Position numbers and translations under genes: made by a program. Below are positions 7,939 through 46,505 of a stretch of DNA of 64,000 bases, one piece after another. The stretch comes from Escherichia phage dhabil, in sequence record MN850621.1; one strand, written 5' to 3'. A model generated the notes under the pieces. The model saw nothing but the letters and a program-made list of their open reading frames with translations, was not told the DNA's origin and did not search any database. Within the stretch, counting starts at the first letter, position 1. Each line of letters opens with the position of its first letter.

Positions 7939-8528
7939 TATTTTCTCATAGATGGATGCATAGACATACGAGCCACACGTTGTTCGGCATACGAATCAAT
8001 TTGTGGACGACCTGTAACTATTGTACCATCTATTTCTACAGCAAACGACTTGAAGTTGAATGTTGCCGTAGCGATTATAGCAGGGTCAGAATCTTCTTTA
8101 TACGAGTATTGGATTTCCGATAAGTCGGATGGCCAACCGCCGTAGTAATGAATGCTCATTACGATTTTCTGTTTGTTGTTATCAAGGATATGGAGGGTAA
8201 TCGCTTCAGGCAAGCCTTTAGGATGCCAGGCTTCGGATTCATGTGTTACATAGTTGTTTAATGATAGCATCCATTTATAAACGTCCATCCATGATTTCAG
8301 CTCACGGTCTACAAGAAAGTTTACAATCAAGGGGTCGAATTCTACTGTAGAACCTGGCAGCTTAGCACGATGTATGCCCTGGGTCGATCCGGGGACGTCT
8401 GAGATAGGAATATGGATACCCGGTAGTGTTACATCTTGTACGTTCAATTTGAATGACTGCGTCATTCCTGAGTCACTAACCTCTAAGATAAAGTTGGTAG
8501 TGTTAGTTTGGTTAAATAAACCGTTCAT
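7938..8528 (-). CDS. 3: gp3 tail completion / sheath stabiliser protein
   Basis: Synteny (1-3-2-4) and size; start could instead be the internal Met at 8465. Confidence 0.65.
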   Translation of the reverse strand: MNGLFNQTNTTNFILEVSDSGMTQSFKLNVQDVTLPGIHIPISDVPGSTQGIHRAKLPGSTVEFDPLIVNFLVDRELKSWMDVYKWMLSLNNYVTHESEAWHPKGLPEAITLHILDNNKQKIVMSIHYYGGWPSDLSEIQYSYKEDSDPAIIATATFNFKSFAVEIDGTIVTGRPQIDSYAEQRVARMSMHPSMRK

Positions 8529-8610
8529 AGGATTCCTATATTGCTTAAGTCCCAGACAGTGTATAATGGTCCTAGGTCTATTCCATTCAATAACTGGCTG
8601 GGATAATAGA

Positions 8611-9261
8611 TTATTTTATAAATTCACGTAATCTTACAGGTGTCATAAAAGGCCATTTGGCTATAGTTGGTTTTATCCAGTATCTTTCATGACATGTAGC
8701 TTTAAACGCCCGAACCATATCCTTGGCCTCTTCTATAGTATCCACACCAAATTGTTCACAAGTTTTCTTTCTGGCTTTATCCCATCTCCGTTTAGCAAGC
8801 TCTGCTTGGAGGTCTTTATTGGCAAAATGGCCATTATTCCTGTTATGTGTGGTTCCTTTAGTAGGGCTCCATCCTCGTCCCTTTACAAATCCTTTAGGGA
8901 CAGGTTCGTCTGGGAATAATTTAATACACTTATCACCGTTATTATAATAAACCTTTCCGGTTTGGGTAGCTGTAATATTCTCAGAATGTTTACGTTTAAG
9001 CCACCCATAAAGCTTATTAGAACGACGAGGACCTTGAGTCATTGTCATAGCTGCAAAAGTTAGTCCAGGATGGCCCGGATGTATTTTAACTAATAGTTGA
9101 TGTGCCAAATAATGTTCTTCAGGGGTTAAATCAACTAGGTTTGTAGATTCATCACCTCCACCCATACATCTAGGTAAGATATGATGAGACTCTGTATAGC
9201 AGGATAGTGCTCGTCCTTGAGCACGTTTAATTAATGAAGAATATATTTTCTGGTAATCCAT
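8611..9261 (-). CDS. HNH-family homing endonuclease (free-standing, about 216 aa)
   Basis: HNH motif ESHHILPRCMGGGDESTNLVDLTPEEHYLAH; ATG at 9259-9261 overlaps the gene 2 stop (TAATG); sits between genes 3 and 2, which I recall as adjacent in T4. Confidence 0.7.
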   Translation of the reverse strand: MDYQKIYSSLIKRAQGRALSCYTESHHILPRCMGGGDESTNLVDLTPEEHYLAHQLLVKIHPGHPGLTFAAMTMTQGPRRSNKLYGWLKRKHSENITATQTGKVYYNNGDKCIKLFPDEPVPKGFVKGRGWSPTKGTTHNRNNGHFANKDLQAELAKRRWDKARKKTCEQFGVDTIEEAKDMVRAFKATCHERYWIKPTIAKWPFMTPVRLREFIK

Positions 9262-10097
9262 TATGCGTTCTTCCAAACTTTCTGAGCACTGTAACGCTTA
9301 CCTTTAGACATAAACTGCTGAAGAGGAAGTAGGGTTACGTTAGCCCAATCAGAAGGTTTTATCTCTACTAAAGGTCCCTTGATATTTCCAGGGATATAAG
9401 CCTTAATCATCGCGTCAGCACCAGCAAATCCTTTTACCTTACTCCAATCAATTTTTAATTTGGTCGAGTTCGTAATGGTAGGCGTACTCGCGTATTGCTT
9501 CAGCAATTCTTCTAGAAATTGTTGGCGTGCTTTAGGCGGAATATAGTGTAAGTTCAACCCATACATCAGATTATGCTTACCGAGCCCAAGATAAATGATT
9601 AAAGGATATTTGTCCCAGTAGGGTAATGTGTCCTTGTGTTTAGCATCATAGATATAAGCATAAAGCTTACCAGGAGATGGTTTAGATACCTGGTGTCCAC
9701 GAATTCCTTTCTTTAATGTTTCTGTAAACCATTTAGCTGATTTATTGTTTACAGCAGCGCCTTCGTTAGCAATCTTATCACGAATACTCTTTCTAAAACT
9801 ATTCACCAAAATTAATTGACGTTCGGCTTTGGTCAATTTATTGCCAGGTTTCTTCTGAAGTTTTTCGACCTGTACGGCAGTTTTAATTCGACTCGAGTAT
9901 CGAGACATCGCAGATGTAAAGCTAGAATACTTAATGCCTTTATCTTCAGCGAATTTCTTAGACGAGACACCTTTGGCCTTAGCTTTGGCATATTCAACAC
10001 CTAAAGCTATCCATTGTTGCTCTGAACGAGTAGGCTTAGAACCTTTTGTGGTTTCAGTGGCCTCATTGATGTAGGAAAATATACTCATCCTTTCCAT
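9261..10097 (-). CDS. 2: gp2 DNA end protector protein
   Basis: Synteny and size (278 aa) consistent with T4 gp2. Confidence 0.7.
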
Positions 10098-34663: not shown

Positions 34664-36238
34664 ATGGCAAACTTTAATACAATATTAAGTTTTCTTAAGC
34701 CATGGGCTAATGAAGACGAAAAAGAATATAAACAACAATTAAATAACAATTTAGAGTCTGTCACTGCACCTAAGCTTGATGATGGCGCTCGCGAAATTGA
34801 AACCCAAGAGCAAAATATTCCTTATAATGCTCTTATGCAACAAATGTTTGGTAGTAATGAGCCTGAAGTTAAAAACACCAGGGAACTCATTGATACCTAC
34901 CGTAATTTGATGAACAACTATGAAGTCGACAATGCCGTTCAAGAAATTGTGTCTGACGCTATTGTCTACGAGGATGATAAAGAAGTAGTTGCATTGAATT
35001 TAGACGGCACGGAATTTAGTCAATCAATTAAAGATAAAATTTTGGCTGAATTTAGTGAAGTTTTAAACCTTTTAAATTTCCAACGTAAAGGCACTGACCA
35101 TTTCCAACGTTGGTATGTAGACTCGAGAATATTCTTTCATAAAATTATAAACCCTAAAAAAATGAAAGATGGCGTACAAGAGCTTCGACGCTTAGACCCG
35201 CGCCAAGTCCAATATATTCGTGAAATCGTTACACGTATGGAAGACGGCGTTAAAATTGTAGACGGGTATCGCGAGTTTTTCGTTTACGACACAGGCCATG
35301 AAAGTTATTGCGCTGATGGACGCATTTATTCAGCCGGGACTAAAGTTAAAATTCCTCGTGCTGCCGTAGTTTATGCACATTCCGGATTATTAGATTGTTG
35401 CGGTAAAAACATCATTGGCTATTTGCAACGTGCTATTAAGCCTGCAAACCAGCTTAAATTGATGGAAGACGCAATGGTCATCTACCGTATTACACGTGCT
35501 CCTGACCGTCGTGTGTTTTATATCGATACAGGTAATATGCCTTCACGTAAGGCTGCAGCACAAATGCAACATATCATGAACACGATGAAAAACCGTGTGG
35601 TGTATGATGCTTCGACAGGTAAAATTAAAAACCAACAACATAATATGTCTATGACTGAAGACTATTGGTTGCAACGTCGTGACGGTAAAGCGGTAACAGA
35701 AGTTGATACAATGCCAGGTGCTACTGGTATGAGTGATATGGATGATGTTCTTTATTTCCGCACAGCACTTTATCGTGCACTGCGTATTCCAGAGTCACGT
35801 ATCCCTAGTGAATCTAATTCAGGCGTTATGTTTGATGCCGGTACAGCAATCACTCGTGATGAGTTGAAATTTGCTAAATGGATTCGCCAGCTACAAAACA
35901 AATTTGAAGAAATTTTCCTAGACCCGTTAAAAACAAACCTCATTCTTAAAAAGATTATTACAGAAGATGAGTGGGAAAAGGAAATAAATAATATTAAAGT
36001 TACGTTCAATCGTGATAGCTATTTCAGTGAAATGAAAGATGCGGAAATCATGGAACGCAGAATCAATATGCTAACGATGGCTGAACCATTTATTGGTAAG
36101 TATATTTCACATCAAACGGCTATGAAAGATTTCCTTCAGATGACTGACGAAGAAATTAATCAAGAAGCTAAGCAAATTGAAGAAGAGTCTAAAGAGGCTC
36201 GTTTCCAAAACCCAGATGAAGAAGAAGAGGATTTCTAA
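34664..36238 (+). CDS. 20: portal vertex protein
   Basis: 524 aa, same length as T4 gp20; position between 19 and 67. Confidence 0.9.
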
Positions 36239-36516
36239 TGGAAGATTTAATCGAAGCTATTAAATCAAACGACCTCGTAGCAGTTCGTAAAGCAGCAGCC
36301 CCGCTTATCGAATCTCGAGTAGCCGCTTTGATTGAAGCCCGTAAAGCAGAAATTGCTCGCTCCGTTATGATTGAAGGCGAAGAAGCCGACGAAGATGACG
36401 AAGACGAAGATAAAGACGAAAAATCCGATAAAGCAGATAAGAAAGACAAAAAAGAATCTGACGATGCGGATGAAGGTGATGACGGCGATGATGATGAAGA
36501 CGAGGACGACGAATAA
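36238..36516 (+). CDS. 67: prohead core protein with poly-acidic C-terminus
   Basis: 92 aa ending in a long D/E run; position as T4 gp67. Confidence 0.8.
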
Positions 36517-38446: not shown

Positions 38447-40006
38447 ATGAAAAAGAATGCATTAGTACAAAAATGGTCCGCTCTGCTGGAAAACGAAGCT
38501 CTTCCTGAAATCGTTGGTGCTTCTAAACAAGCTATCATCGCTAAAATCTTTGAAAACCAGGAACAAGATATTCTGACCGCTCCTGAATATCGTGACGAAA
38601 AAATCTCCGAAGCATTTGGTTCTTTCCTGACTGAAGCTGAAATCGGTGGTGACCACGGTTATGATGCTACCAATATCGCAGCTGGCCAGACCTCTGGTGC
38701 TGTAACTCAGATTGGGCCGGCAGTAATGGGTATGGTTCGTCGTGCTATTCCTCATCTGATTGCTTTTGATATTTGTGGTGTTCAGCCTCTGAATAACCCT
38801 ACCGGCCAGGTATTTGCACTGCGCGCAGTATACGGTAAAGACCCTATCGCTGCTGGCGCTAAAGAAGCTTTCCACCCGATGTATGCTCCGAATGCTATGT
38901 TCTCTGGTCAGGGTGCTGCTCAGACTTTTGAAGCACTGGCTGCAGGTAAAGTTCTGGAAGTTGGTAAAATTTATTCTCACTTCTTCGAAGCTACCGGTTC
39001 TGCACACTTCCAGGCTGTTGAAGCCGTAACCGTTGATGCTGCTGCTACCGATGCTGCTAAACTGGATGTTGCCGTAACCGCTCTGTTGGAAGCTGGTCAG
39101 CTGGCTGAATTGGCTGAAGGTATGGCTACTTCTATCGCTGAACTTCAGGAAGGCTTTAACGGTTCTCAGGACAACCCGTGGAACGAAATGGGCTTCCGTA
39201 TCGATAAACAAGTTATCGAAGCTAAATCCCGTCAGCTGAAAGCAAGTTACTCCATCGAACTGGCACAGGACCTTCGTGCAGTACACGGTATGGATGCAGA
39301 TGCTGAACTGTCCGGTATCCTTGCTACCGAAATTATGCTCGAAATCAACCGTGAAGTTATTGATTGGATTAACTACTCTGCACAGGTTGGTAAATCTGGT
39401 ATGACCAACACCGTTGGCGCTAAAGCTGGTGTGTTTGACTTCCAGGACCCGATCGATATCCGTGGTGCTCGTTGGGCCGGTGAGAGCTTTAAAGCCCTTC
39501 TGTTCCAGATTGATAAAGAAGCAGCCGAAATCGCTCGTCAGACCGGTCGTGGTGCTGGTAACTTCATCATCGCTTCCCGTAACGTAGTTAACGTACTGGC
39601 TGCAGTTGATACTTCTGTAAGTTATGCAGCTCAAGGTCTGGGTCAAGGTTTCAACGTTGACACCACTAAAGCAGTATTTGCCGGTGTTCTTGGTGGTAAA
39701 TATCGCGTTTACATCGACCAGTATGCCCGTGCTGATTACTTCACCATCGGTTATAAAGGTTCCAACGAAATGGACGCAGGTATCTACTACGCCCCTTACG
39801 TTGCACTGACCCCGCTGCGCGGTTCCGATCCGAAGAACTTCCAGCCGGTAATGGGCTTCAAAACTCGTTACGGTATCGGTATTAACCCGTTCGCTGACCC
39901 AGCTGCTCAGGCACCTACCAAACGTATTCAGAATGGTATGCCGGACATCGTTAACAGCCTCGGTCTGAATGGTTACTTCCGTCGCGTTTATGTTAAAGGT
40001 ATCTAA
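38447..40006 (+). CDS. 23: major capsid protein
   Basis: Long blocks (QAIIAKIFENQE, AFGSFLTEAEIGGDHGY, ATNIAAGQTSGAVTQIGPAVMGMVRRAIP, C-terminal FRRVYVKGI) match recalled T4 gp23. Confidence 0.97.
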   Translation: MKKNALVQKWSALLENEALPEIVGASKQAIIAKIFENQEQDILTAPEYRDEKISEAFGSFLTEAEIGGDHGYDATNIAAGQTSGAVTQIGPAVMGMVRRAIPHLIAFDICGVQPLNNPTGQVFALRAVYGKDPIAAGAKEAFHPMYAPNAMFSGQGAAQTFEALAAGKVLEVGKIYSHFFEATGSAHFQAVEAVTVDAAATDAAKLDVAVTALLEAGQLAELAEGMATSIAELQEGFNGSQDNPWNEMGFRIDKQVIEAKSRQLKASYSIELAQDLRAVHGMDADAELSGILATEIMLEINREVIDWINYSAQVGKSGMTNTVGAKAGVFDFQDPIDIRGARWAGESFKALLFQIDKEAAEIARQTGRGAGNFIIASRNVVNVLAAVDTSVSYAAQGLGQGFNVDTTKAVFAGVLGGKYRVYIDQYARADYFTIGYKGSNEMDAGIYYAPYVALTPLRGSDPKNFQPVMGFKTRYGIGINPFADPAAQAPTKRIQNGMPDIVNSLGLNGYFRRVYVKGI

Positions 40007-40021
40007 GACCTAACCTTATTA

Positions 40022-40044
40022 TGGGAGACTTCGGTCTCCCATTC
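40022..40044 (+). terminator. intrinsic terminator GGGAGAC-TTCG-GTCTCCC + CATTCTTGTTTCT after gene 23
   Basis: Perfect 7-bp stem with UUCG loop followed by a T-rich tract. Confidence 0.6.
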
Positions 40045-40093
40045 TTGTTTCTGTACTATAGTAACACGTGGGAACCTTGCTGTAAACAACTTT

Positions 40094-40101
40094 TATAAAT
40101 A
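40094..40101 (+). promoter_or_regulatory. T4-type late promoter TATAAATA
   Basis: Exact TATAAATA 28 nt upstream of the first gene 24 copy. Confidence 0.6.
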
Positions 40102-40129
40102 AACATATACCCTCAATAAGGAAAGCGCA

Positions 40130-41413
40130 ATGGCAAAGATTAACGAATTACTGCGCGAGTCAACAACTACTACCAGCAACTCATTGGGTCGCCCTAATCT
40201 TGTTGCTTTGACCCGTGCTACCACTAAACTAATTTATCGCGATATCATCGCTGAACAACGTACAAACCAACCTATCGCTGCGTTGTATGGTGTCAAATAT
40301 CTTACCCCTGATAATGAATTCAGTTTCCAAACCGGTGCAGTTTATGGTGGTGAAGTTGGTTCTAAAGACCGTGAAACTATCCCGGAACTCACAGATAAAG
40401 CCCAGGCGATTGCCAAGGGTGACTACTTTAAGTATCAGAATGTGGTTTATAAGGCTCTTCAAGCAAGCCCACTCGCATCCACTAGCGCTACAGAATTGGC
40501 CGATGCTCTTCAAGAAGGTTTGGTGTCATTAACGTGTCGTTTGGTTCCTGATGCAGCCCATACCACTAAATTTGAAGAGAGTGATGTAGAAATCTCTGAT
40601 GCTGTATTCCAGGTTAATAAATGGAATGCCCCTGTTAAGACCCGTAAATTGAAGACTGCTTTGACCGTAGAATTAGCACAGGATATGGAATCAAATGGCT
40701 TCGACGCCCCTGCATTCTTAGAAGACCTCCTGGCTACAGTAATGGCAGATGAAATTAATAAAGATGTTCTGCAATCCCTAATAACCGTATCCAAACGCTA
40801 TAAAGTTACGGGTGTATCTGATAATGGCATCATCGATTTGACTTATGATAGTGCTCCAGAATCTGCACGTAAACTTTATGAAATTGTTTGTGAGATGAAT
40901 TCTGAAATCCAGAAAACTACTTCTTATTCGGGTACGTTTGTTGTGGCTTCAAGTCGTGTGGCTGCAATGCTTGCAGGTTCTGGCTGGTTAAAACATAGAC
41001 CTGAAGATAATAATTGGCTCCCAGAAACGGCCTATGGTTATTTGTTGAATGGATTACCTCTGTTCTGTGACGTTAACAGCCCATTGGATTATGTTATCGT
41101 AGGTGTTAAAGAGAACTATGGTGGTAATGAAGTTGTCGGTTCTATTTTCTATGCCCCATATACAGAAGGCCTGGATTTAGACGACCAAGAACACGTTGGT
41201 GCTTATAAGGTTATTGTCGACCCGGATTCATTACAGCCTTCTATTTCTCTGATGGTTCGTTATGCACTGTCCGCTAACCCGTACACCGTAGCTAAAGACG
41301 ATAAAGAAGCTCGTGTTATCGATGCAACCAATATGGATTTAATGGCTGGTCAGAGTAATATGTCTTATCTGCTTGGTGTTAAACTTCCAGCAATTATTTA
41401 CGAGGCTGATTAA
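40130..41413 (+). CDS. 24: capsid vertex protein gp24, copy 1
   Basis: 427 aa (T4 gp24 length); gp23-like blocks (FRIDKW..EVK.RKLKT.LTVELAQD, YAPYTEGLD, LSANPYTVAKDDKEARVID). Confidence 0.85.
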   Translation: MAKINELLRESTTTTSNSLGRPNLVALTRATTKLIYRDIIAEQRTNQPIAALYGVKYLTPDNEFSFQTGAVYGGEVGSKDRETIPELTDKAQAIAKGDYFKYQNVVYKALQASPLASTSATELADALQEGLVSLTCRLVPDAAHTTKFEESDVEISDAVFQVNKWNAPVKTRKLKTALTVELAQDMESNGFDAPAFLEDLLATVMADEINKDVLQSLITVSKRYKVTGVSDNGIIDLTYDSAPESARKLYEIVCEMNSEIQKTTSYSGTFVVASSRVAAMLAGSGWLKHRPEDNNWLPETAYGYLLNGLPLFCDVNSPLDYVIVGVKENYGGNEVVGSIFYAPYTEGLDLDDQEHVGAYKVIVDPDSLQPSISLMVRYALSANPYTVAKDDKEARVIDATNMDLMAGQSNMSYLLGVKLPAIIYEAD

Positions 41414-42693
41414 TGTCTAAGATTATAGACCTAATTAAAGAATCCACATTGACGGCTGCCAACTCGGTTGGCCGTCCTGCTCTTCTTTCATACACCCAAG
41501 CAACTAATAAACGAATCTTTAAAGCCCTAGTTGCTGAACAAAAAACAAGCCAACCTGTTGCTGCTCTGTACGGGGTTCGTGTACTTAACCCTGACGACAA
41601 AATGACTTATCTTGGTGGCGCTACATTTGCAGGCCAGATTGGTATGTCGGAACGTGAAAATATTCCTGAATTTACCGATTCGTCTACAGCTTATGCAGCC
41701 GGCGATATGTTCCAGTTTGAAAGTGTAGTGTTTAAAGTTCTAGAAGCATCTCCTTTCGCCGGAACCACGGAAACCGACCTCGGTGAAGTTATTTCTGAAG
41801 CAGTGGCCGCTGGGCATATTCGTATGGTATCAGATGCTGCTATTACTTCTAAATTCGAACAAGGCCATCCTGAAATTGCTGAAGCAGGCTTCCGTATTGA
41901 CAAATGGCAATCTGAAGTTAAATCACGTAAACTGAAAACTTCATTGACAGTCGAATTGGCCCAAGACCTAGAATCAAACGGGTTTAATGCTCCTAATTTC
42001 ATTGAAAATCTGCTAGGCATTCAAATGGCAGAAGAAATTAATAAGGACGTATTACAGTCATTAATTACAGTGAGTTCTCGTTTTAAAGTCCAGGGTGTTT
42101 CTGAAAAGGGCGTATTGGACCTTACTAACCCACGTTATGATAATGCCCAGGACCGTGCTCGTACATTATATTATTACATGTGTGAGATGAACTCTGCCGT
42201 CCAACGTCAAACTTCTTTCGCTGGGACTTATGCCGTAGCTAGTTCTCGTTGTGCTGCTATTCTCGCTGCATCCGGTTGGGTTGAGAAAAAGGAAGACCAA
42301 GATGAATTGGCTTATGGTGTATTAAAGAATGGTCTACCTCTTTATGCCGATATGAATAGTCCATGTGATTATGTTATTGTTGGTGTAAATGCTCAGATGG
42401 GTGAAGGACAGACGGTCGCATCTTTATATTATGCGCCTTATACGGAAGGTTTGGATGTGGTTGATGAAGAAGGTGATACTTCAGTAGGTGAATTTAAGGT
42501 TATTGTTGACCCAGAAAGCTTACAACCTACAGTAGCATTGCTTGCTCGTTATGCATTGACTGCAAACCCTTATACCGTCGCTAAGGACGATAAAGAAGCC
42601 CGCATTATTGATGGTTCTGATATGGACAAAATGGCTAACCAAAGCCAGTTGAGTTCTTATCTCGGTGTTAAACTTCCACCACTAGAAAAATAA
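41413..42693 (+). CDS. 24: capsid vertex protein gp24, copy 2 (tandem paralog)
   Basis: 426 aa, alignable with copy 1 over full length; translationally coupled (TAATG). Confidence 0.85.
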   Translation: MSKIIDLIKESTLTAANSVGRPALLSYTQATNKRIFKALVAEQKTSQPVAALYGVRVLNPDDKMTYLGGATFAGQIGMSERENIPEFTDSSTAYAAGDMFQFESVVFKVLEASPFAGTTETDLGEVISEAVAAGHIRMVSDAAITSKFEQGHPEIAEAGFRIDKWQSEVKSRKLKTSLTVELAQDLESNGFNAPNFIENLLGIQMAEEINKDVLQSLITVSSRFKVQGVSEKGVLDLTNPRYDNAQDRARTLYYYMCEMNSAVQRQTSFAGTYAVASSRCAAILAASGWVEKKEDQDELAYGVLKNGLPLYADMNSPCDYVIVGVNAQMGEGQTVASLYYAPYTEGLDVVDEEGDTSVGEFKVIVDPESLQPTVALLARYALTANPYTVAKDDKEARIIDGSDMDKMANQSQLSSYLGVKLPPLEK

Positions 42694-42718
42694 AAGGGAC
42701 CGTAAGGTCCCTTTATTG
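42693..42718 (+). terminator. intrinsic terminator GGGACC-GTAA-GGTCCC + TTTATTGTTTATT
   Basis: Hairpin plus T-rich tract directly after gp24 copy 2. Confidence 0.6.
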
Positions 42719-42719
42719 T

Positions 42720-43727
42720 TTATTTGGATACTAATTCAATCCATACAGCTCGTAGCGTATCTTTAACGCACTCAATAAGCTGCTTTTTAACTTCAACAGG
42801 GTTTTCTGCATCGGTTAATTCTAATTCTTCGCGGGCTGCCTCTTCCAAAATATCTTGGACCGTCAGTCCCATTACCTTTCCAAAATCTTTAGGTGATACT
42901 TCACCAATCTTACTGATAACGTTGTTAATACGGTTAACAGTCACATAATCTGTGAATTGTTGTAATAAATCTAAATCGTCTTGGGATAATACTACTGCAA
43001 CTTTAATAGGCTTATCAGATTTTTTCTTCTCGCTGAATTTAGAGTTCTTGCATTTAATTGCTACACGATTTCCATTAGGCAGCCAAAGCGGATAACAAGG
43101 TTTTAATACGTACCCTTCAGCGGTAAATACTTCGCCTTTTGCTTCGGCATTCCACACATGAGCATTAGCTTCGGCTAGCCCGACATTATCTACTGTAAAA
43201 TTATAATCAGGAAGGACGGAATCTAAATCATTTGGCAATTTAATAAGGTCTTCAAATTTACCACGACCTAAAAGTGGTGCCATTTTAAATTTGAACGTCT
43301 TACAAAATGATTCCATCATATAATCGTCGACATAAGTCACATCGCCGCTTTCGGTGGTAACAATAATGTCAAATACATAAAAATCTTTATCACCGTAATC
43401 AACGTTCTTCTGAATGCCTGTTCCAGCGAATTCACCGAAAACTTGATAAGATACGGCTGCTGAAGTTTCCATAATATCTTGTATAGATTTAATAGAATCA
43501 GCGTAGTTCTTAAGTACAATTTCATAACCATAGAAATCTTCAGCAGGGAGAATTGGGCCAGTGCGCTTGGCGCATGTGACTGCGTCACGTTCTATGATTA
43601 AACTAAAGTTGGTTCCATGAATCTTCTCACGTGCTACCCATTCACCACCAGTCAAACCATTGGTACGGAGTTTTTCGATAAACTTACTGTTGTAGTGGTT
43701 TTCCAGACTGCTATATTTCTTGAACAT
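42720..43727 (-). CDS. rnlB: RNA ligase 2
   Basis: [20 protein letters not shown]...[10 protein letters not shown] (ligase KxHG lysine motif); 335 aa; position after gene 24 as in T4. Confidence 0.9.
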
Positions 43728-44123: not shown

Positions 44124-45629
44124 ATGTCAGACAATCCATTATACGGGCATGATGGTAGAGGCCACTTTAGAGGCGTATCATTAGTAGAAGTTCCACAGAA
44201 CAAATCATTGGAATTTGTGGACATACTCACTAGTGAAAGCACCTTAGACCCTACTATGCTAGATTCTTCTCAAAGCTATGGACTTGAATTTATAAAACAA
44301 GCTTCTAGGGAAGGCGCGTTGGCCCATTTAGGTATAACTAATGAGATGCTAACACCTGGTACTGAAGGTCCACAAGGCCCTAAAGGAGACCCAGGGCCGC
44401 AAGGTATTCAAGGTAACCCCGGTCCTAAAGGAGAAAAGGGCGAACCAGGACCAGTAGGTCCAGAAGGTCCTAAAGGAGACCCGGGTTCACCAGGAAAAGA
44501 AGGCCCTCAGGGTTTACAAGGGGCCCAAGGAGAAGTAGGACCGCAAGGACCACAAGGTCCTATAGGCCCGGCAGGTTTGGTGTGGAAGGGAGCCTGGGAT
44601 GAATCTACCCAATACTCTAAAGACGATGCAGTTGGATACCAGGGAGCTTCTTATTTTTGCATCAGTTCTAATACAGGAACAATACCTCCTAGCGAAGGAG
44701 TTTGGGCACTATTGGCTAATATCGGTGCACCAGGTCCTCAAGGACCAACAGGCCCAACCGGCCCTCAAGGTCCACAAGGCGCGCCAGGCCAAGATGGTAA
44801 TGGGTTTATCTGGGCCGGAAACTGGGCCCTTGGTTCGTCTTATTATATAAACGATTTGGTCCAGTGCGAAGGGTCTTCTTGGATTTGTATCCAGGATAAT
44901 ATAGCAAATAATGATAGTTATCCTGGGAGTGGAGACCTGTGGGCCGATTATTGGAATTTATTTGTAAAAGAAGGGCGTCCAGGAAATCCCGGAGAAGATG
45001 GTGCACCTGGAGAGCAAGGTGCCCAAGGACCGCAAGGCGACCCAGGTCCTAAAGGTGAAAAGGGTGAACCCGGGCCACAAGGTATTCAAGGTCCTATAGG
45101 TCCTGCAGGTGCGCCAGGCAAAGATGCAGTATTTGATGTCGATTCTTTAACCCAGTCTCAATTAAAATCTTTATATGATAAACTTTTCCCATTCTATCCA
45201 CCTAGATATTGGAAAGGCTCTTTAAGATTTGATAAGCCTCTGAACACTTCAGAGTGGAAGGAAATACGTTTGTGGGACCTTAATATGGTTCTTCATGTTC
45301 GCATGTACTCATCTGTAGGCATCCATATAAGGGCTACTAATGCAGGTCTTACTAATAGGCTTGATATTAAAAGATTTACCAACTATGAAAACGGAATAGA
45401 ATGTGCCAACTGGAGTAATGTGTTGTGGTCATCATCTCCTGAATTATTCGACGATTTGGCTTATTCTAGTGCAAGACAATTTAACCGTTACGAAATATTT
45501 GACCGTGATACTAGAAAATACTACACTGTATCTGTGTTTATTGTAGGCGGCCCTCTTAATACGACTACAGATATCCCTGTTGAAGTTTTATTTTCTGTCG
45601 AAGACCATACCAATATGAGCACGTTTTAA
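44124..45629 (+). CDS. collagen-like triple-helix repeat protein with two carbohydrate-binding-like (CBM5/12-type) inserts and a C-terminal globular domain (501 aa)
   Basis: Three Gly-X-Y runs (aa about 81-152, 203-229, 286-336) separated by two W....Y..(D)D.V.Y.G.SY.C...N.G..P....W motifs; RBS AGGAGA. Confidence 0.75.
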
Positions 45630-45638
45630 GGAGGTTAA

Positions 45639-46505
45639 ATGATTGTACTTAAAATAAATGGTCCTAGATATGAATTGGTTGGCAGGACAGTAACCTTTTA
45701 TACCGGGTTTGTATTACCACCCGGTTCTACTCTAGATGACGTAGAAATTAATTGGTATAAAAACGATGTCCATATTCCACAACTTCCTACCGAAGACCCT
45801 TTTGAATTAAATTTATGGGAAGTAGGATTCCCGGCGGCAGGAACATTTTATGCGACCATAACAAATAAGAAAAGTGGTGAAATAACAAAGAGTAACGAAA
45901 TAGAACTTGAAATAGGTACCCTTCCAAGAAGAATAGTCCTAGATATAAACTCTAGGGAATTAATATATGCCAATATAGGAGAAACAGTTTCACTTCGCCC
46001 GTCGTGTAGAGTGGAACCCACTTATGCCGAAAGAATTTGTAGATGGTATAGAGATGGAGTAGAATTATCTAAAGACGAAGATATTGATATATTAATAGAC
46101 GACCCTGATAAATTTGGAGATTATACATTAAAATCTATAGCGACCTGCGAAGGAGCATATATCCCTGCTTCTGAAGAACTTTTAGTTGAAATAAAACCTA
46201 GGGATGATGTATTGCAGTGCCCTTTCATATATGATAACGACCTTAATGCTTATTTACCATATGGCGGTGGAAGAAATGAATCGTATATGTGGATAGGTTG
46301 GTGGGTATGGGACGAAATAAGAGAAGCCGTTAGATTGGGAGAAGATTGGACTTTGGATATAAACAACAGCCCATACAAGTATAAATGTGAGTTACAAAAA
46401 GTAGCCGACCTTTTGTCTAAGTATCCTGAAGTAGAGATACAAGAGTCGAGAAATGGCTACATCTTAGAAAGGAAAGACTTAGTTTACGTCCCTCCTGAAA
46501 AATAA
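45639..46505 (+). CDS. Hoc-like capsid decoration protein paralog (288 aa)
   Basis: C-terminal about 90 aa (YMWIGWWVWDEI...EDW...LQKVADL...YPEVEIQESRNG) parallels the Hoc C-terminus at 46779-47066; RBS AGGAGG. Confidence 0.7.
   Translation: MIVLKINGPRYELVGRTVTFYTGFVLPPGSTLDDVEINWYKNDVHIPQLPTEDPFELNLWEVGFPAAGTFYATITNKKSGEITKSNEIELEIGTLPRRIVLDINSRELIYANIGETVSLRPSCRVEPTYAERICRWYRDGVELSKDEDIDILIDDPDKFGDYTLKSIATCEGAYIPASEELLVEIKPRDDVLQCPFIYDNDLNAYLPYGGGRNESYMWIGWWVWDEIREAVRLGEDWTLDINNSPYKYKCELQKVADLLSKYPEVEIQESRNGYILERKDLVYVPPEK

Follow-up and report, generated by a model that had tools for sequence, protein, structure and literature searches.

Conserved tandem vertex protein genes 24a and 24b in Escherichia phage dhabil and other T4-like phages

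Bacteriophage T4 is the reference model of prolate capsid assembly, with one vertex protein, gp24, at all 11 vertices. In the T4 record, gene 23 is followed by segD (a GIY-YIG gene on the minus strand), by the single gene 24 and then by rnlB. Phages of the JS98 type have for years been annotated with two gene 24 copies. Here, we describe such a pair, 24a and 24b, in a 64,000-nucleotide stretch of Escherichia phage dhabil (sequence record MN850621.1; this whole stretch is referred to as the window), where two adjacent genes encode gp24-type proteins and segD is absent. Taken as a whole, the locus is best explained as a conserved JS98-type 24a-24b vertex operon that would encode two non-redundant structural vertex proteins, and we place the probability of this reading at roughly 0.6.

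Comparison with described two-copy phages

The pair is annotated as 24a/24b in JS98 (EF469154), JS10 and IME08, as 24(1)/24(2) in VR7, as ‘capsid vertex protein I/II’ in VR5, VR20, VR25 and VR26, and as ‘head vertex protein I/II’ in Salmonella phage CGG4-1, and is therefore not new. A duplication of gene 24 in JS98 is said to be mentioned already by Chibani-Chennoufi et al. (J Bacteriol, 2004). A 5.4-kb query covering the locus is 99.9% identical to Escherichia phage dhaeg (MN850609, genus Dhakavirus), whose record uses the names ‘precursor of head vertex subunit’ and ‘capsid vertex protein I’, and 88–97% identical to other JS98-like phages. In the comparisons that follow, ‘dhaeg’ denotes the sequence of the window.

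Judged by identity to the JS98 proteins (94.8% for 24a and 91.3% for 24b, against 57% in the cross-comparisons), the window pair is orthologous one-to-one to JS98 24a and 24b. The gene order and context are also the same (23, 24a, 24b, convergent rnlB), and in both phages the two paralogs are ∼57% identical to each other. We considered whether JS98 has the two genes in swapped order, as its proteins are 426 then 427 amino acids long and those of the window 427 then 426, but the gene order agrees and the difference is one of length only. The loci differ in detail: the JS98 genes abut (TAA then ATG), whereas those of dhaeg overlap by one base in a TAATG, and JS98 and VR7 have a small reverse open reading frame (ORF) between 23 and 24a that dhaeg is without. 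For 24b, dhaeg carries an allele of the JS10/CLB_P2 type (99.5–100% identical).

Family membership of the two proteins

The two genes are as follows.

40130–41413, plus strand: gene 24a, orthologue of T4 gp24, capsid vertex protein; ORF of 427 amino acids
41413–42693, plus strand: gene 24b, second and more diverged gp24 paralog; ORF of 426 amino acids

The two proteins align end-to-end by BLASTP with 241 of 428 positions identical (56%), 77% positives, a score of 502 bits and three short gaps over the whole length, a similarity far above chance. Each matches the T4 gp24 structure 1YUE along its length (24a: 666 bits, E = 1.5e-199, residues 1–424; 24b: 510 bits, E = 4.2e-152, residues 1–423), and both also match the T4 gp24 structures 5VF3 and 7VRT along their full length. 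The gp23 chains in the same structure search reach only ∼45 bits against either protein, and gp23 of the window is 26% identical to 24a; on these scores, both copies are far nearer gp24 than gp23. All three proteins belong to Pfam PF07068, with 24a scoring 330.7 bits and 24b 326.8 bits against a gathering threshold of 24.4, and both span profile positions 2/3–376 of 376.

Compared with T4 gp24 (PDB IDs: 1YUE, 5VF3, 7VRT and 7VS5), 24a is 70.4% and 24b 57.9% identical. Because a solved structure with 57–70% identity exists, the HK97 fold of both copies is settled. The T4 protein and both paralogs have in common the full-length fold, a cleavage motif after residue 10, the position after gene 23 and a late promoter, and the pair lies directly downstream of gene 23 in a putative late transcription unit. 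By every sequence-level criterion that we applied, 24a and 24b are thus members of the T4 gp24 family.

Distribution of the pair

A tblastn search with 24b returned gp24 homologues in 1,416 phage records, at 1,534 matching places. When 24b orthologues were isolated by a threshold of E < 1e-175, they were found in 116 phage records and were full-length (at least 80% query coverage) in every one of the 116. We inspected the gene layout in one representative per lineage, and the order 23, 24a, 24b is annotated in the six lineages sampled (five named Tevenvirinae genera and Marfavirus), which are listed here as two-copy lineages.

Dhakavirus
Gaprivervirus
Gelderlandvirus (Salmonella phages S16, STML-198 and Melville)
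Kanagawavirus (Enterobacter phage CIP9), with Kosakonia phage 305
Marfavirus (Klebsiella phages Marfa, Potts1 and P545)
Roskildevirus (Erwinia phages Cronus and IT22)

A single copy is present in Tequatrovirus (T4, RB14), Mosigvirus, Karamvirus, Jiaodavirus and Winklervirus, and likewise in Yersinia phage MHG19, Acinetobacter phages, Krischvirus, Pseudotevenvirus, Slopekvirus and Chrysonvirus. The pair is therefore widespread and not peculiar to this genome.

Both copies are intact and constrained

The 14 copies from seven two-copy phages are all intact, without internal stop codons. Between dhaeg and JS98, the ratio of nonsynonymous to synonymous divergence (dN/dS) is 0.054 for 24a, 0.056 for 24b and 0.060 for gp23, and over all comparisons it lies between 0.02 and 0.25 for both copies. 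The orthologues have also diverged to a similar extent, with a dN between dhaeg and Cronus of 0.287 for 24a and 0.278 for 24b. These ratios indicate that both genes are under equally strong purifying selection, at a dN/dS of ∼0.05.

In T4, the gp21 protease removes 10 N-terminal residues from gp24 (PMC9546572). The corresponding predicted sites in the window are at the following positions.

40151–40162, plus strand: L8-R9-E10-S11 codons, predicted gp21 prohead-protease cleavage site of 24a (from alignment)
41434–41445, plus strand: I8-K9-E10-S11 codons, predicted gp21 cleavage site of 24b (motif in all seven 24b sequences)

The site reads LLRE|S in 24a and LIKE|S in 24b, and, as a motif alone, (L/I)-x-E|S is kept in all 14 paralog sequences. 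A second set of informative residues comes from T4 gp23, where the substitutions N381S, A387T and K420R, located at the intracapsomer interface, let gp23 replace gp24 at the vertices (PMC9546572). By alignment, the equivalents of N381, A387 and K420 in T4 gp24 are R277, A283 and G309, and these are invariant in 12 of 12 paralog sequences (six 24a and six 24b, with VR7 left out). A further 130 group-conserved columns are identical between the 24a and 24b groups. Both paralogs look like processed penton-type shell subunits, since they are intact and constrained and keep both the cleavage motif and the residues equivalent to the gp23 bypass positions.

These data bear directly on whether one copy is a decaying or non-functional duplicate, as an inactivating lesion in either gene would indicate. 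No such lesion was found among the 14 copies, 24b is full-length in all 116 records, dN/dS is low for both genes in every comparison and the motifs are conserved. We regard decay as vanishingly improbable, and on this conservation the pseudogene reading is excluded.

Expression unit and flanking signals

The signals read around the pair, together with its downstream neighbour, are as follows.

40021–40042, plus strand: terminator-like hairpin with T-run after gene 23; nine-pair stem ATGGGAGAC TTCG GTCTCCCAT, T-rich tail
40094–40101, plus strand: T4-type late promoter motif TATAAATA for the 24a-24b transcript, 28 nucleotides before the 24a ATG
40118–40125, plus strand: Shine-Dalgarno-like AAGGAAAG for 24a, read from the sequence
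41402–41405, plus strand: GAGG Shine-Dalgarno for 24b, within the 3' end of 24a, 7 nucleotides before the 24b ATG
41411–41415, plus strand: TAATG stop/start overlap of 24a and 24b, one base shared, predicted translational coupling
42693–42714, either strand: bidirectional terminator hairpin closing 24a-24b and the convergent rnlB; nine-pair stem, T-runs on both strands
42720–43727, minus strand: rnlB, convergent neighbour (ORF)

Gene 23 stops at 40006, with the terminator-like hairpin 15 nucleotides beyond. We scanned the inside of 24a for the late promoter motif and found none, so 24b appears to be without a late promoter of its own; no terminator was found between the two genes. With one promoter upstream, terminators on either side, none in between and a TAATG overlap, the motifs predict that 24a-24b is one late bicistronic operon that is translationally coupled.

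The spacer between gene 23 and 24a (40007–40129) is 123 bp long and without an ORF. A sequence-only reading of the window had described two adjacent full-length gp24-type ORFs of 427 and 426 amino acids, translationally coupled, and had contrasted a single gene 24 with segD in T4 with the absence of segD here. The ORFs proved exact, with the 56% identity and 1YUE matches given above; the TAATG overlap and GAGG Shine-Dalgarno speak for the coupling; the T4 record agrees (23, segD on the minus strand, 24, rnlB); and the ORF-free spacer matches the absence of segD. Thus, T4 has one copy with segD between 23 and 24, whereas dhaeg has two copies and no segD.

Insertions recur in the 23-24 spacer across T4-like phages, which makes it a hot spot: T4 has segD there, MHG19 a homing endonuclease, GAP161 a Seg-like GIY-YIG gene, Meroveus a 1.4-kb nuclease/acetyltransferase gene, and JS98, VR7 and JS09 a small reverse ORF. 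In Dhakavirus UP19, a homing endonuclease is annotated somewhere within the matched gp23-to-rnlB stretch.

Paralog-specific differences

We defined fixed differences as those separating the 24b clade from the group of 24a and single-copy proteins, in T4 numbering. Against this T4/24a type, 24b has three loop insertions or deletions (indels) and 15 fixed substitutions: L8I, V25L, A26S, T32N, L34R, Y36F, K56R, Y57V, F66Y, Y108F, P244Q, I261V, Y267F, E335Q and L415Y. Nine of the 15 fall within residues 8–66 (Fisher odds ratio 9.3, p = 0.0002).

41434–41610, plus strand: 24b residues 8–66, N-arm and start of I-domain linker 1, with nine of the 15 fixed paralog-specific substitutions

In the T4 capsid, gp24 residues 11–20 reach onto the neighbouring gp23 hexamer, residues 26–29 pair with the I-domain linker of the adjacent gp24 subunit, and residues ∼60–81 are part of I-domain linker 1. 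More generally, the N-arm and I-domain-linker segments touch the neighbouring vertex subunit, while the N-arm and AP loop touch the adjacent gp23 hexamer (PMC9546572). The conserved indels of 24b comprise a gain of two to three residues after residue ∼239, a gain of three residues in the loop 348–359, and a loss of four residues beside the segment that aligns with the AP-loop region of gp23. The constraint profiles of the two proteins also differ, with residues 106–165 and 226–300 more conserved in 24b than in 24a, and residues 1–30 and 331–375 more conserved in 24a than in 24b. This pattern fits two proteins with partly different contacts. Since the fixed differences are clustered, the indels conserved and the constraint profiles different, 24a and 24b are probably not redundant.

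The opposite possibility is a dosage pair, in which the two proteins are interchangeable at any vertex and the second copy raises or buffers supply. Transcription as one translationally coupled operon would suit this, as would the shared fold, cleavage motif and penton-type core residues, and T4 relatives manage with one copy. Yet a redundant copy would be unlikely to persist intact through synonymous saturation and six lineages at a dN/dS of ∼0.05, and one would not expect 15 fixed residues clustered in a contact region, conserved indels or a different constraint profile. The need for more product is also not obvious, given that a T4 head contains 55 copies of gp24 against 930 copies of gp23 (PMC9546572). 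We therefore hold a pure dosage role to be quite improbable.

Age and phylogeny of the split

Between 24a and 24b, synonymous sites are saturated in the seven genomes (proportion of synonymous differences, pS, of 0.64–0.72), while dN is 0.36–0.41 and exceeds that of the most distant orthologues (∼0.28–0.30). To place the paralogs, a neighbour-joining gp24 tree was built from 26 sequences with 500 bootstraps. All 24b sequences form one clade (99% bootstrap), in which the branching order matches that among the 24a sequences. The 24a sequences of Marfa, CIP9, S16, VR7, JS98 and dhaeg also form one clade (100%), which is sister to Karamvirus, Mosigvirus and Tequatrovirus (94%); Cronus 24a branches next (96%). 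Beneath all of these joins the 24b clade, which also falls, weakly, below the Acinetobacter phages (54%). Site patterns that unite 24a with T4/RB69/Karamvirus and 24b with the outgroup prevail by 15:3:4 when the threshold is loose and by 6:0:0 when it is strict; for deeper placements of 24b the site patterns gave no resolution.

On this tree, T4 gp24 is the orthologue of 24a. As 24a shares with T4, RB69 and Karamvirus gp24 a group that leaves out 24b, the split predates the T4-JS98 divergence, and the single copy in T4 therefore reflects either loss of 24b or its lateral gain elsewhere. The sequence-only reading had seen a tandem duplication, old in view of the many differences, and had proposed identity and phylogeny against other gp24 proteins as a check. 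That check puts 24a with T4-type gp24 and 24b in its separate clade, and the saturated pS and high dN in all seven genomes confirm the age. The two tandem paralogs are real, but the duplication did not take place within this lineage (94–96% bootstrap; 15:3:4 to 6:0:0), and the paralogs are not the sister clades that a recent lineage-specific duplication would leave.

We weighed several other readings. A long-branch or acceleration artefact in the deep position of 24b was not supported, as both copies are equally distant from four outgroups (∼43.5–44% identity to Krischvirus, Pseudotevenvirus and Slopekvirus, and 30–32% to Chrysonvirus) and the dN between orthologues is the same. Gene conversion between the copies was rejected: nucleotide identity is 61.5%, the best 90-nucleotide window reaches 73% and the longest exact in-register run is 15 nucleotides, which also leaves little substrate for recombinational collapse. 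Composition gave no signal of a recent foreign origin of 24b, as the GC content is 0.422 for both copies and codon usage correlates with that of other late genes at r = 0.90; an ancient transfer would be compatible with these values.

Some tips of the tree are discordant. VR7 24b groups with JS98 24b (98%), yet JS98 24a groups with dhaeg 24a (99%), and the 24b of dhaeg matches CLB_P2 24b at 100% identity but JS98 24b at 91%. These Dhakavirus and Gaprivervirus tips point to allele exchange within or between 24a and 24b.

The pair and the genome backbone

The species tree was calculated from concatenated gp17, gp18, gp19, gp20, gp21, gp22 and gp23 (2,766 ungapped columns), this seven-protein set being used instead of a tree of gp23 alone, which was not resolved. 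In it, two-copy Cronus is the first Tevenvirinae branch (93%), S16 joins the single-copy Karamvirus (98%), Marfa joins the single-copy Jiaodavirus (97%), and CIP9 with dhaeg (100%) stands beside the single-copy Winklervirus (74%). Gene by gene, the nearest phage to S16 in most flanking genes is a single-copy phage, whereas S16 24a is 87% identical to dhaeg 24a against 59–70% to any single-copy gp24. In the quartet of S16, dhaeg, Karamvirus and Cronus, the site patterns of 24a favour S16 with dhaeg by 40:3:4, in conflict with those of gp23 (2:11:9), so the pair appears to have its own history; the flanks in total give 33:62:54 and, being only weakly tree-like, do not allow the number of losses to be counted reliably. 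By these patterns the pair is one coherent history that is discordant with its mosaic, weakly tree-like flanks.

The discordance can be read as an ancestral two-copy state followed by several losses and by cassette exchange through recombination. Alternatively, a foreign gp24 may have been captured laterally, after which the pair spread. The second view concerns origin only and would make 24b a xenologue, captured beside the resident gene 24 by unequal recombination from a distant, unsampled T4-like lineage. It gains from the position of 24b outside 24a and all single-copy gp24 of the Tevenvirinae, and weakly outside the Acinetobacter phages, a depth that is not a rate artefact because 24b is no farther from the outgroups than 24a. 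The conflict of pair and flanks shows that the locus recombines, and the T4-like rnlB of dhaeg (82.9%) is unlike that of the other two-copy phages. Against this, no donor lineage is visible among the 1,416 phage records; the single-copy gp24 nearest to 24b, that of Jiaodavirus (63%), is equally near 24a (64%); the GC content and codon usage of 24b match those of other late genes; the deep node has 54% support only; and Cronus, the earliest-branching two-copy phage, sits at the base of the species tree, in keeping with an ancestor that carried two copies. We consider capture possible but doubtful, and somewhat favour an old duplication in place, close to the base of the Tevenvirinae.

The comparison of rnlB (42720–43727, minus strand) is of separate note. 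The dhaeg protein is 82.9% identical to that of the T4-type phage RB14 and 59–67% identical to those of other two-copy phages, which suggests a recombination breakpoint right after 24b.

A possible division of labour at the vertices

The reading that we prefer is the conserved vertex operon with two non-redundant products introduced above. The late promoter TATAAATA would drive one bicistronic mRNA, on which 24b would start at the TAATG overlap from its own Shine-Dalgarno, so that both products would be made together, in fixed proportion, late in infection. Both would enter the prohead shell as HK97-fold, penton-type subunits, would be trimmed of their 10 N-terminal residues by the gp21 protease and together would build the 11 non-portal vertices. 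The two proteins may split the vertex job, either by each forming its own homopentamers at a separate class of vertices or by combining in a fixed mixed arrangement; we prefer such a split because each has its own selection pattern and because the fixed differences lie mainly in the N-arm and I-domain linker 1, and also in or near the AP loop. The sequence-only reading had suggested mixed or specialised pentameric vertices, an idea with which the sequences are compatible, as both copies are constrained but with different profiles. In evolutionary terms, 24b parted from 24a earlier than T4 did from JS98, probably close to the base of the Tevenvirinae; the pair would since have been passed down as one block, with some lineages losing, replacing or exchanging it through recombination.

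A narrower version assigns 24a and 24b to different defined vertex classes (for example, the portal-proximal ring as opposed to the distal ring and apex) or to an obligate mixed penton, in an arrangement that the ancestor of T4 had and lost. In this specific form we consider the proposal unlikely. The older gp23/gp24 paralogy is the nearest parallel, as it too involves a duplicated HK97-fold capsid gene that lies beside its parent and is specialised for another lattice position. Those proteins are ∼26% identical and their division into hexon and penton is demonstrated, whereas 24a and 24b are 56% identical, both are penton-type and their division is hypothetical.

A different role for 24b, outside the stable mature vertices, also has to be weighed. 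It could be a prohead assembly or scaffold-like factor, a vertex protein for particular conditions (such as low temperature or a certain host), or a decoy that diverts host defences triggered by capsid proteins. The two-copy phages VR5, VR7 and VR20 belong to a group of low-temperature coliphages, 24b is more variable than 24a in its first 30 residues and in residues 331–375, and nothing in the literature and PDB searches places 24b in virions. Co-transcription and coupling with 24a argue against condition-specific expression, however, and the cleavage motif and full-length fold, with I domain and linkers, fit a shell subunit and not a soluble factor or decoy; the capsomer-core residues are also invariant. 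We give such a role a low probability, on a par with that of a dosage pair. The label ‘structural virion protein’ carried by both gene 24 copies of VR7 was considered as proteomic evidence and rejected, its wording having been copied from the T4 RefSeq annotation.

Several points weigh against two non-redundant vertex proteins. Heads of the same kind are made by T4-like phages that have only one gp24, which shows that a second vertex protein is not needed for them. The literature search, for which the primary JS98 papers were out of reach, returned neither a statement on 24b function, virion presence or structure nor a proteomic or structural study of a two-copy phage, and the PDB matches to 24a and 24b are to T4-type gp24 only, with no structure from a two-copy phage among them. 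The promoter, terminators and coupling are known as sequence motifs and not from measured expression. The residue contacts are transferred from T4 by alignment, as is the assignment of the four-residue deletion in 24b to the AP loop; Cronus has the shorter loop beside this segment in 24a and not in 24b. Lastly, the gp24 tree is a neighbour-joining tree of a modest taxon sample, in which the position of 24b relative to Winklervirus, Jiaodavirus and the Acinetobacter phages has 54% bootstrap support.

With these points in mind, a sizeable group of T4 relatives appears to have maintained a pair of non-redundant vertex proteins over a very long period. If 24a and 24b do sort to different vertices, they would show how a capsid tells geometrically different five-fold positions apart, and the uniform gp24 vertex of T4 would be a derived, secondary simplification. 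The existence of the pair was already known; how two conserved proteins share 11 vertices is a well-posed question.

Other observations in the window and its relatives

In the window, a gp67-like prohead core ORF (36238–36516, plus strand) ends in a very long acidic tail of Asp and Glu. Salmonella phage S16 (9911–10516) and Serratia phage X20 (9983–10588) carry an I-TevIII-like endonuclease gene between gp68 and gp21; dhaeg, RB14, CIP9, Cronus and EnC07 have none at this position. In the stretch of Klebsiella phage Marfa that we examined (∼8240–9800), the portal gene gp20 has no coding sequence annotation although a ribosome-binding site is annotated; its best ORF is 382 amino acids long, against ∼520 elsewhere, which may reflect a frameshift or a sequencing error.

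Beyond rnlB, an ORF of 501 amino acids (44124–45629, plus strand) contains long collagen-like G-X-Y runs and has a GC content of 0.49–0.50, compared with ∼0.40 for the window; the same collagen-repeat gene is present in VR7. It is followed by a hoc-like gene (45639–46505, plus strand). The dhaeg record has a second hoc-like gene on the minus strand, after the plus-strand one, and in JS98 hoc lies on the minus strand directly after 24.3.

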